From the NCBI GenBank assembly GCA_037305845.1, contig CP147778.1:1536001-1600000 (forward strand): a stretch of 64,000 nt of DNA, in the 5' to 3' direction. The position numbers and the translations under genes are program-made. Position 1 is the stretch's first letter. Every line of letters begins with the position of its first letter. Positions 7,325-62,390 of the stretch are shown here, one piece after another. The notes beneath the pieces were generated by a model that was not told the origin of the DNA, did no database searches, and saw only the letters and a list, made by a program, of their open reading frames with translations. This stretch comes from Candidatus Freyarchaeum deiterrae (GTDB taxonomy: Archaea > Asgardarchaeota > Jordiarchaeia > Jordiarchaeales > Jordiarchaeaceae).

Positions 7325-7987
7325 GTGTTCACTAATCAAAGAATATTGGAAGCAGCAGAGGACCTACGATATCTTCTGAACCGAAAGTATAACAGAGATC
7401 AAGCATTAAACTTTGTTGGAGACCGTTACAAACTAAATAAAGAGGAACGGTTTGTCCTCTACAGAGCGATATACAGCCAAACGGAAGTAAAAGAAAGAAA
7501 AGAAAAAGCTTTAACATTTATAGAACTCGGAGACAAAACACTGACCATAGACGCATACAACGTAATAATAGTTCTTGAAACAATGCTCCAAGGAAAAAAT
7601 CTAATCGACGCCGACGACGCGTTTGTAAGAGACATTTCCGGAGTATTCGGTAAACACAAAATAACAAAAACAACAATCCAAGCAATTGACATAATAATGC
7701 AAACACTGAAACAAACCCCCCCAAAAGAAACACTTATATTTTTTGACAGCCCAGTAAGCAAAAGCGGTGAACTGGCCGCAATCACAAGAAAAAAAATGGA
7801 ACAATACAGCATACACGGCACAGCACAAGTAGCAAAACAAACAGACAACGCAGTCCTGAGAAGAGGACAAGTTGCAGCCACCAGCGACAGCGTCATACTA
7901 CAAAAAGCAAAAAAAACCTTTGACTTAGCAGGATACATCGTAAGAAAAAGGAATTACAAGCATCTATACCCAATAAGGAAAACATAA
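7325..7987 (+). CDS. DUF434-family (PIN-like) protein
   Basis: AAEDLRYLLNRKY, IDAYNVII, D.FVRD, DSPVSKSGELA, ATSDSVIL. Confidence 0.8.
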   Translation: MFTNQRILEAAEDLRYLLNRKYNRDQALNFVGDRYKLNKEERFVLYRAIYSQTEVKERKEKALTFIELGDKTLTIDAYNVIIVLETMLQGKNLIDADDAFVRDISGVFGKHKITKTTIQAIDIIMQTLKQTPPKETLIFFDSPVSKSGELAAITRKKMEQYSIHGTAQVAKQTDNAVLRRGQVAATSDSVILQKAKKTFDLAGYIVRKRNYKHLYPIRKT

Positions 7988-8067
7988 CGGATAAACATTT
8001 TAAAGAATCCGATAAACATAATAAATGAAAAGAAAATCTTAAACCTACACTATATGAGACAAGAGTC

Positions 8068-8210
8068 GGGTACGTCACCTAGCCAGGATTTCAGAAACCT
8101 GAAAGGGTGCCGACGTTTAAGGCATAAGCCCTCTAATCCTGGAGGTAAGCCGGAAAGCCAATAACTATTTGGTCCGGATTTCGAGAGTTCAAACCTCTCC
8201 GTACCCGCCA
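8068..8210 (+). tRNA. tRNA-Arg(UCU) with four BHB introns (20a/21: 8090-8103; 29/30: 8113-8127; 37/38: 8136-8147; 45/46: 8156-8179)
   Basis: Removing the four introns gives a 78-nt cloverleaf: GGGTACG TC ACCT AGCCAGGATA GGGT G CCGGC CCTCTAA GCCGG AATTC GAGAG TTCAAAC CTCTC CGTACCC G CCA; A20 Arg identity element; central helices CAGG/CCTG, GTGC/GCAT, CCTC/GAGG, CCGG/CCGG, each with 3-nt bulges. Confidence 0.9.
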
Positions 8211-8223
8211 ATTCCTCTTTTGT

Positions 8224-9210
8224 TCATTTTCGAAAGTGTTCGTAACCTTTGGGTTCTATTCTTTTTTCAGCTTGACTCGGTAGGCGTAGAACCACGTATT
8301 TTTCTTCTGTGACAGTTCCTATCGGATACAGAGTGCCGCCAACCATTTTCACCGCGTCCACGGCTCTATTCCACTTTGTTGAAGGAACTGTAACAACGAG
8401 CTCAAATTCTTCACCACCATACAAAGCTAGATCTAGGTAGTTAAGATCGTGGCTCTCTGAAAATGTTCGCACCTCTTTCGGAACAGGTATCGAATCGATA
8501 ATGAATCCAACCTCGCTCATTTTGGAAAGTTCGTATAGCGACCAGGCTAAACCGTCGCTGCTGTCTATACTGGATGTTGCGAGATTACGCTCAGATAGAA
8601 CTATTCCTTCCTTCATTCTAGCCTGAGGTTCGTACACGGCACGTAAACCCAGTTCCTTAGATTGAGGATCAGCGCTCAAGTTTTCAAGCAGTATCTTAAA
8701 CCCCATGGCAGTTAAGCCGAATGGACCAGTTACTGCAACAACATCCCCAGGCTTTGCTCCCTTGCGTGACACAACTTTATTCTGCCCAACAAGCCCAAAA
8801 ACAGCTCCTGAAACCACAAGATCAGAACACTCTCCAGTATCGCCTCCTAGGTAATATAAACCGTATTCTCTGCAGCCTGAGTTCAATCCTTTAACTAAAT
8901 CCCCCGCCTGATCAATAGTTGTACTAGGTGGGAAACCTAAGGAAAAAACGGCGCCAATGGGCTTCGCGCCCTTAGCGACAACATCGCTTACATTCATAAC
9001 AGCTGCCTTTCTCCCTGCATGCCAGTAAGACATACCCGGCGGAACGTCAGTACTACCCACAAGCATATCAGTTTTAATGATGAGAGCGTCATTCCCAAAA
9101 GGTATCCCTACAGCATCATCACCAAATGGCAAAACCTCACGTGGAAATCTATCAATTAAAGTGAAAAAGAAATCAATTAATCCACGCTCACCAATGTCAC
9201 TTACACTCAT
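8224..9210 (-). CDS. thiL: Thiamine-monophosphate kinase
   Basis: IGERGLI, GDDAV, NVSDVVAKGA, GGDT, DSSDGL, GGEEFELV, GYEHF. Confidence 0.95.
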   Translation of the reverse strand: MSVSDIGERGLIDFFFTLIDRFPREVLPFGDDAVGIPFGNDALIIKTDMLVGSTDVPPGMSYWHAGRKAAVMNVSDVVAKGAKPIGAVFSLGFPPSTTIDQAGDLVKGLNSGCREYGLYYLGGDTGECSDLVVSGAVFGLVGQNKVVSRKGAKPGDVVAVTGPFGLTAMGFKILLENLSADPQSKELGLRAVYEPQARMKEGIVLSERNLATSSIDSSDGLAWSLYELSKMSEVGFIIDSIPVPKEVRTFSESHDLNYLDLALYGGEEFELVVTVPSTKWNRAVDAVKMVGGTLYPIGTVTEEKYVVLRLPSQAEKRIEPKGYEHFRK

Positions 9211-9247
9211 AAAAACTACCATCCAGAACACTGTAAAAAAGATAAGT

Positions 9248-9409
9248 TGGAGCCCCGGACGGGGGTTTCAGAGTCACACTAAAAGTGCAAGCTCTATCGA
9301 ACCCGCGACCTACAACTCACTCGGACCACATTTGGAATCTGTGGTTGTACGAGGCTGCCGCTCTACCACTGAGCTTTCTCGCCTCTTACTTCACTGGAGG
9401 AACCGAGGC
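9248..9409 (-). tRNA. tRNA-Thr(CGU) with three BHB introns (8/9: 9376-9401; 37/38: 9318-9347; 59/60: 9265-9295)
   Basis: Spliced 75-nt cloverleaf: GCCTCGG TA GCTC AGTGGTA GAGC G GCAGC CTCGTAA GTTGT AGGTC GCGGG TTCGATC CCCGT CCGGGGC T CCA; helices CTCG/CGAG, CTCG/CGAG, TTCG/TGAA. Confidence 0.92.
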
Positions 9410-9580: not shown

Positions 9581-9739
9581 TGGTGCTCCGGACGGGAGTT
9601 TCAAATTAAGTAATCACTTAGTTATTCAATAAAGTAATCACTTAATATTTTGAACCCGTGTCTAGGGATCGATTGGGCTGATGTACATGAGCCCCTTATG
9701 CTTGGCCCTTATCTTGTTTGGCCGCTACACTACCGGAGC
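9581..9739 (-). tRNA. tRNA-Glu(CUC) with three BHB introns (21/22: 9702-9717; 34/35: 9673-9688; 59/60: 9598-9648)
   Basis: Spliced 76-nt cloverleaf: GCTCCGG TA GTGT AGCGGCCAA GCAT A AGGGG CTCTCGA TCCCT AGAC ACGGG TTCAAAT CCCGT CCGGAGC A CCA; helices GGCC/GGCC, GGGC/GCCC, TTCA/TGAA. Confidence 0.9.
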
Positions 9740-11140: not shown

Positions 11141-11326
11141 GGGCCCCTAGCTCAGCCTGGTATGAGCGCCGCGTTACCCATACCTTATCACTAGAGGAAT
11201 GGGAGCGAAGGCAACTTGATACCAAAATCGCGGAGGCCGCGGGAAACCCCTAACAATAAGTAAGGGTTCGCGAATTCGAATCCGCTGAGAATCCTCTCAA
11301 CGGCGGAGCTCCCGCGGGGTCCACCA
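11141..11326 (+). tRNA. tRNA-Ala(GGC) with four BHB introns (33/34: 11176-11209; 37/38: 11214-11227; 53/54: 11244-11274; 59/60: 11281-11309)
   Basis: Spliced 78-nt cloverleaf: GGGCCCC TA GCTC AGCCTGGTAT GAGC G CCGCG TTGGCAT CGCGG AGGCC GCGGG TTCGAAT CCCGC GGGGTCC A CCA; G3:U70 Ala identity agrees with the reconstructed GGC anticodon. Confidence 0.92.
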
Positions 11327-11647: not shown

Positions 11648-11842
11648 GCCGTCGTAACTATTCACCAAGAAGAATAGCGACAAGCTTAGCCCGGGAGAGC
11701 GCCGGATACTGCCATAAGCATTGCAGAAGGCGAAACTGAAGATCCGGCTGTCGCTGGATCCTGCCAGAACCATTGACAGGAGGCGAATTCAAAGGGAATA
11801 GTGTTTGAAACACTATTCCTGAAACTCCGGCCGACGGCACCA
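11648..11842 (+). tRNA. tRNA-Phe(GAA) with four BHB introns (9/10: 11657-11683; 30/31: 11706-11734; 53/54: 11758-11787; 59/60: 11794-11825)
   Basis: Spliced 77-nt cloverleaf: GCCGTCG TA GCTT AGCCCGGGA GAGC G CCGGA CTGAAGA TCCGG CTGTC GCTGG TTCAAAT CCGGC CGACGGC A CCA; helices GTCG/CGAC, CGCC/GGCG, CGCT/GGCG, TTCA/TGAA. Confidence 0.93.
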
Positions 11843-12046: not shown

Positions 12047-12153
12047 TGGTGCGGCTGCCGGGATTTTCAGAAAAGTGATTTTTCACTTTTTATTTGAACC
12101 CGGGTAACAAGCTTGGAGGGCTTGTGTCCTAGACCAGTCTGGACTACAGCCGC
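12047..12153 (-). tRNA. tRNA-Gly(UCC) with one BHB intron at 59/60 (12064-12092)
   Basis: GCGGCTG/CAGCCGC A CCA; CAAGC CCTCCAA GCTTG anticodon arm; TTCA/TGAA helix with hairpin intron; 78 nt spliced. Confidence 0.92.
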
Positions 12154-62106: not shown

Positions 62107-62203
62107 TGGCGCAGGGAGAGGGATTCGAACCCCCGCATCCCTTACGGGATACTGGCTCTCAAGGCCTACGCTTGAAGGAGATTCCTCATTCAATCAGCGC
62201 CGT
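62107..62203 (-). tRNA. 3' portion (nt ~21-76) of tRNA-Ser(UGA) with a 29/30 BHB intron (62166-62194); nt 1-20 absent
   Basis: ACGGC G CTGGC CTTGAGA GCCAG, long variable arm ATCCC GTAA GGGAT, GGGGG TTCGAAT CCCTC, TCCCTGC G CCA; no matching GCAGGG(A/G) acceptor strand upstream. Confidence 0.8.
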
Positions 62204-62390
62204 TTCCAGACACCTTTCCAGTGGATCCATAAAGATAGGGTTACATGAGGGGGTGTTCTAAAACTCAATCCTCCGGAAGCCTAGTACCTTAGCTTCGTTT
62301 TCTTTTTTTGAAATTAATTTAAATATAAGTTTAAAAATTTTTTAAAAAACCTTAAATATCCCATAAACAAAATCTTTATACATTGAATGA

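Follow-up and report, generated by a model that had tools for sequence, protein, structure and literature searches.

The locus analysed here very probably encodes a functional tRNA-Arg(UCU), present as a single copy and interrupted by four BHB introns that would be removed by proteins (EndA and RtcB) in ordered rounds of splicing, yielding a 78-nt product that reads AGA. It lies in a window of 64,000 nucleotides with 40.7% G+C (C1:1536001-1600000) on the single 3,576,204-bp contig of Candidatus Freyarchaeum deiterrae, a wetland-soil Asgard archaeon whose type genome is SRVP_Freyarchaeota_curatedFINAL (PMC11291895). The four-intron gene is real, correctly read and already known, and in this lineage genes of the kind are nothing unusual.

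Anatomy of the tRNA-Arg(UCU) gene

The exons, introns and neighbours of the gene are listed in Table 1. Upon removal of the four introns, 78 nt remain in which all stems are fully paired, with the anticodon UCU and an encoded CCA end, and this spliced sequence is called tRNA-Arg(tct) by ARAGORN. The original prediction, which had been made from the letters of the window, had described introns of 14, 15, 12 and 24 nt in the D-loop, anticodon stem, anticodon loop and variable loop and an exact 78-nt cloverleaf after their excision; lengths, positions and cloverleaf were all reproduced, and the predicted gene model holds at every nucleotide. The unspliced gene was missed by both ARAGORN and Rfam. 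When ARAGORN was run with one intron allowed and a lowered threshold, it returned 252 calls, mostly spurious, which were left out.

Table 1 Features of the tRNA-Arg(UCU) locus, with positions in the window (H, central helix of the BHB motif; h and h', outer helices).
Feature	Position	Strand	Remarks
Upstream neighbour, DUF434/DUF5616 protein	7325-7987	+	
Candidate archaeal BRE/TATA	8035-8046	+	Purine run and TTAAAC, ~25-30 nt upstream
tRNA-Arg(UCU) gene, 143 nt	8068-8210 (C1:1544068-1544210)	+	CCA encoded
Exon 1, 22 nt, tRNA nt 1-20a	8068-8089	+	
Intron 1, 14 nt, D-loop 20a/21	8090-8103	+	H = CAGG/CCTG; relaxed motif; same borders in PMC11291895
Exon 2, 9 nt, nt 21-29	8104-8112	+	
Intron 2, 15 nt, anticodon stem 29/30	8113-8127	+	H = GTGC/GCAT; hBH motif
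Exon 3, 8 nt, nt 30-37	8128-8135	+	C32, unusual C33 (8131), anticodon UCU (8132-8134)
Intron 3, 12 nt, anticodon loop, canonical 37/38	8136-8147	+	H = CCTC/GAGG; hBH motif, outer helix is the anticodon stem
Exon 4, 8 nt, nt 38-45	8148-8155	+	nt 40-43 shared by intron-4 helix and anticodon stem
Intron 4, 24 nt, variable loop 45/46	8156-8179	+	H = CCGG/CCGG; HBh' motif, 5-bp h'
Exon 5, 31 nt, nt 46-76	8180-8210	+	
Convergent downstream neighbour, AIRS/AIRS_C protein, probably ThiL	8224-9231	-	

All four introns have 4/4 central-helix pairs, the phase being set by two 3-nt bulges. The outer helices are 1 bp on either side for intron 1, h = 2 for intron 2, h = 2 (5 once intron 2 is removed) and h' = 1 bp for intron 3, and h' = 5 for intron 4. 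When the letters of the introns were shuffled with exons and borders fixed, none of 200,000 shuffles retained all four helices, and multiplication of the single-helix retention rates gave ~9e-9. Two solvers that were given the gene only both arrived at a four-intron parse, the first, to which the anticodon had been supplied, with identical borders, and the second with the fourth intron in a shifted register.

Other readings of the locus were discarded. A split or permuted tRNA gene is ruled out, as the five exons lie in order inside 143 nt. Reading the anticodon loop in a shifted frame as CUA was rejected because the stem would not pair, and a cut joining the 5' site of intron 1 to the CCTG of intron 3 would be useless, as it would remove the anticodon arm.

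Published record of the gene and of comparable systems

The same gene is listed as tRNA 11 (Arg TCT, 1544068-1544210) of SRVP_Freyarchaeota_curated in row 11 of Supplementary Data 4 of Valentin-Alvarado et al. 2024 (PMC11291895), where it was found via tRNAscan-SE/R2DT and carries four introns (1544090-103, 113-127, 136-147 and 156-179). Coordinates, anticodon and all eight borders agree with ours. BHB motifs, the order of splicing and C33 are not treated in that table. The four introns are thus not the novelty that had been considered, given this entry and the up to five introns per Asgard tRNA reported elsewhere (bioRxiv 10.64898/2026.10.13.758758). The maximum of three introns per tRNA given with the original prediction is the older figure for Thermoproteales. 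Database records of four-intron tRNAs, named there as what would remove the novelty, do exist: four introns are also listed for two more tRNA genes of this genome, Ile2(CAT) and Leu(GAG), and for Trp(CCA) of Atabeyarchaeia-2 (PMC11291895). According to the same source, introns interrupt 92-95% of tRNA genes, and more than half of the genes carry several.

The gene resembles those of Freyr-, Jordi- and Atabeyarchaeaceae in its short BHB introns, non-canonical sites, repeated gains and two-subunit EndA, and with four introns it lies above the mean of 2.2 per gene and below the reported maximum of five (bioRxiv 10.64898/2026.10.13.758758). Multiple cis BHB introns are likewise found in the three-intron tRNAs of Thermoproteales, such as tRNA-Glu(UUC) of Pyrobaculum calidifontis and tRNA-Pro(UGG) of P. 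islandicum (PMC4390854), and these organisms also share an EndA with a crenarchaeal-type loop and an ordered handling of nested introns (PMC3978253), which for the Freyarchaeum gene is predicted. In contrast, Thermoproteales belong to a different phylum with a literature maximum of three, and their introns recur across tRNA types, which Asgard introns mostly do not. As a record the gene is unimportant, four introns being published and five reported. Its practical use lies in being a compact 143-nt substrate with internal exons of 8-9 nt and a testable order of cuts, suited to in vitro work on Asgard tRNA splicing. Such a test is named as missing in the preprint, according to which splicing of its newly identified Asgard intervening sequences has not been demonstrated (bioRxiv 10.64898/2026.10.13.758758).

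Introns in orthologous genes

Orthologues of the tRNA-Arg(UCU) gene were found in four congeners and in five genomes of the sister family. Introns 1-3 are present in G003-G005 and also in G002, which has another insert in the D-arm and hence four introns of a different set. The orthologues of G006-G010 combine intron 2 with one intron in the D-loop and one in the T-loop, and those of G036 and G026 contain introns 1 and 3 only. Intron 2 is missing at the exact border in G036, G026 and G016, and so is intron 3 in G006-G010. Intron 4 was seen in this genome only and in none of the orthologues examined, and thus it was probably gained recently. Wherever introns 2, 3 or 4 are missing, the exon continues as predicted; the variable loop reads AATTC in G002, G006 and G010, just as it does in the Freyarchaeum gene after splicing. 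The intron-4-free orthologues of G003, G005 and G004 have a variable loop of 7 nt compared to 5 nt. Six genomes of another Asgard family have an intronless Arg(UCU) gene in which all four introns are absent and the D-loop is 1 nt shorter. Phylum-wide pattern searches give noisy results and overlook genes in which the stems differ, and only hits that had been checked individually were used.

In the helices of the BHB motifs, two double-sided compensatory changes were observed, one in the helix of intron 2 (U25-A compared to C25-G in orthologues) and one in that of intron 3 (C33-G compared to U33-A in G002). Overall, 96.9% of the cells were paired, compared to 14-43% with slid partners; the covariation score was matched by 17 of 500 shuffles, the genomes being few and related.

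Probable requirement for the gene and predicted splicing enzymes of the host

In a genome-wide spliced alignment, each of the five Arg anticodons was represented by a single gene, and a further UCU gene did not appear. A match to the U33 pattern at C1:111469 lacks a tRNA context and is no second UCU copy. AGA accounts for 45% of the Arg codons in long open reading frames, and by standard wobble rules it is read by UCU only, and so the gene should be essential.

It is exceedingly improbable that the locus is a pseudogene in decay, with AGA being decoded by a different tRNA. One might argue for decay from C33 and other departures from the consensus, from the modest Infernal score of 59.8 (PMC11291895) and from the incompleteness of the published tRNA list for this genome. 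All stems are, however, fully paired, the change to A10-U25 is compensated and also matched in the intron-2 helix, orthologues are kept in the four congeners and the five sister-family genomes, C33 occurs as well in six other genomes, the Arg(UCU) genes of which are intronless, and the only UCU gene found is this one.

Two genes with an EndA domain were found in the genome. The first product, EndA alpha of 211 aa, aligns to EndA alpha of Aeropyrum pernix with E 8e-43, and the loop lysine K44, which confers broad specificity (PMC3241643), is retained as K66. The second paralogue (198 aa) is beta-like and resembles structural subunits, and a two-subunit EndA layout is found in most Asgard genomes (bioRxiv 10.64898/2026.10.13.758758). 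RtcB is encoded as well. Judged by these sequences, the EndA pair and RtcB are the predicted machinery for the non-canonical sites.

Fold compatibility and predicted splicing order

The BHB motif at 45/46 had been said to use nt 40-43 (CCGG), which also form the anticodon stem, and the BHB motifs had therefore been thought to need mutually exclusive folds. The double use of nt 40-43 (8150-8153) is confirmed, but the conclusion goes too far: the cores of the four motifs, i.e. H plus bulges, share no base and do not cross, and clashes arise via the outer helices only, namely between introns 3 and 2 (8128-8130), 3 and 4 (8149-8150) and 1 and 2 (8105). As these clashes mainly concern the outer helix of the 37/38 intron, they point to an order of splicing rather than to four exclusive folds.

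Constrained folding was used to estimate the cost of each motif. The intron-4 motif costs 0.6 kcal/mol in the primary transcript, and the cost of the intron-1 motif drops from 6.4 to 0.8 kcal/mol. The intron-3 motif costs 7.4 kcal/mol, and 2.6-2.9 kcal/mol only after introns 2 and 4 have been removed. For intron 2, the cost is 6-8 kcal/mol in every intermediate, and thus the enzyme would have to capture a minor fold. In the favoured reading, the two-subunit EndA of the host would cut the transcribed precursor at each BHB motif and RtcB would join the exons again; this would take several rounds, the RNA refolding between them. According to the energy model, intron 4 would leave early, its motif being pre-formed in the primary transcript, and introns 4 and 2 would both precede intron 3, as the anticodon stem has to serve as outer helix of the 37/38 motif. 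Intron 3 would be removed last or nearly last, intron 1 at a flexible time, and the 78-nt end product would then be charged and read AGA.

The predicted order matches that of the C. merolae (Cyanidioschyzon) gene, for which RT-PCR shows that the 37/38 intron is removed last, and the ordered processing of nested introns in archaeal multi-intron pre-tRNAs (PMC3978253). The C. merolae gene differs in being eukaryotic and nuclear, with three introns and independently folding motifs. It appears unlikely that splicing is unordered, with a broad-specificity EndA acting on the four cores in no fixed sequence or on several simultaneously. The absence of shared bases and crossings among the cores would permit this, and an EndA with the CSL lysine cuts relaxed motifs; on the other hand, intron 3 with its 1-bp h' needs the anticodon stem, the formation of which clashes with introns 2 and 4, and 37/38 is the last substrate in Cyanidioschyzon and in the nested archaeal cases.

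The 5' part of intron 3 (8136-8141) is complementary to the D-loop (8084-8089), and this helix dominates the predicted fold of the precursor and is conserved in congeners. Its pair probability is 0.9-1.0 in Freyarchaeum, G004 and G005 and 0.2 in G002, and in a ranking of 1024 by stability of the precursor, the five free bases of intron 3 (8137-8141) come 5th. In the model, the helix competes with the motifs of introns 1 and 3; the test being post hoc, the result may be due to chance.

Cytidine at position 33

In the mature sequence, C33 and C60 replace the usual U33 and U60. U33 is near-universal in tRNA. C33 is common to the Arg(UCU) genes of Freyarchaeum and G003-G005 and to the intronless genes of the six genomes in another Asgard family, and thus it is independent of the intron. 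Among the tRNAs parsed in this analysis, C33 occurs in only 2. tRNA-Gly(UCC) also has C33 in this genome (window 12047-12153, minus strand) and in G009, and U33 in four congeners.

We consider it quite improbable that C33 preceding U34-C35, as in Arg(UCU) with its orthologues and in the two Gly(UCC), is converted to U33 once splicing is complete, by an Asgard C-to-U tRNA editor as yet undescribed. Besides the near-universality of U33 and the recurrence of C33 in the two Gly(UCC), such editing would fit the finding that the enzymes of E. coli and yeast are prevented by C33 from forming t6A37 (PMC8887486), as tRNA-Arg(UCU) reads ANN. Animal KEOPS, however, is not blocked, and C33 is tolerated in the initiator tRNA of animals and plants (PMC8887486); it has also been reported for tRNA-Cys of Sulfolobales. 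The small number of parsed tRNAs with C33 speaks against editing as well. A search for a CDAT8-like editor yielded no deaminase-THUMP fusion, and the sole PF00383 deaminase is a stand-alone frame of 150 aa without a THUMP domain. Tolerance of C33 by Asgard ribosomes and KEOPS, as in animals, is more likely than editing. C33 is a small point on the drift of an 'invariant' base in archaeal relatives of eukaryotes.

Other multi-intron tRNA genes of the genome

Besides tRNA-Arg(UCU), the genome contains at least seven tRNA genes with four introns, two of them in the window. Our own parse added the four-intron genes for Ala(GGC), Phe(GAA), Cys(GCA), His(GTG) and Ser(GCT) and the five-intron gene for Pro(GGG). 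In the window, tRNA-Ala(GGC) (11141-11326, plus strand) has introns at 33/34, 37/38, 53/54 and 58/59 and an exon of 4 nt, and its 37/38 helix forms only once the 33/34 intron is removed; tRNA-Phe(GAA) (11648-11842, plus strand) has four introns with 4/4 central helices throughout. Neither is listed in Supplementary Data 4 of PMC11291895. The published Met(CAT) at 9581-9739 (minus strand) parses as tRNA-Glu(CUC) with three introns, one of them inside the anticodon at 34/35. The tRNA-Thr(CGU) gene at 9248-9409 (minus strand), with three introns including one at 8/9, is already in the published table. At ~62107-62244 (minus strand), the 'tRNA-Leu(tag)' called by ARAGORN corresponds to the 3' portion of a tRNA-Ser(UGA)-like gene interrupted at 29/30; this second copy resembles C1:1618246-1618383, and its 5' end did not parse.

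Elsewhere on the contig, the gene published as Ser(AGA) with a score of 25 (C1:1326639-1326821) parses as a four-intron tRNA-Cys(GCA). Unpublished tRNA genes lie at C1:1921595 (plus strand), 1690305, 1790195 and 1501840 (all minus strand) and ~1631540 (plus strand); of these five loci, His(GTG) and Ser(GCT) have four introns each, Glu(TTC) and Pro(TGG) have three each, and the fifth, which is unparsed, is probably Leu(CAG). A second, near-identical Leu(GAG)-like copy with an unparsed 5' end was found at C1 ~1888900-1889092, ~800 nt past the published one. The tRNA-Pro(GGG) gene at C1:1798836-1799053, published with three introns, parses with five, including those at 24/25 and 25/26 that flank the single-nucleotide exon U25; this layout is conserved in three congeners, and G006 is without the 25/26 intron at that border.
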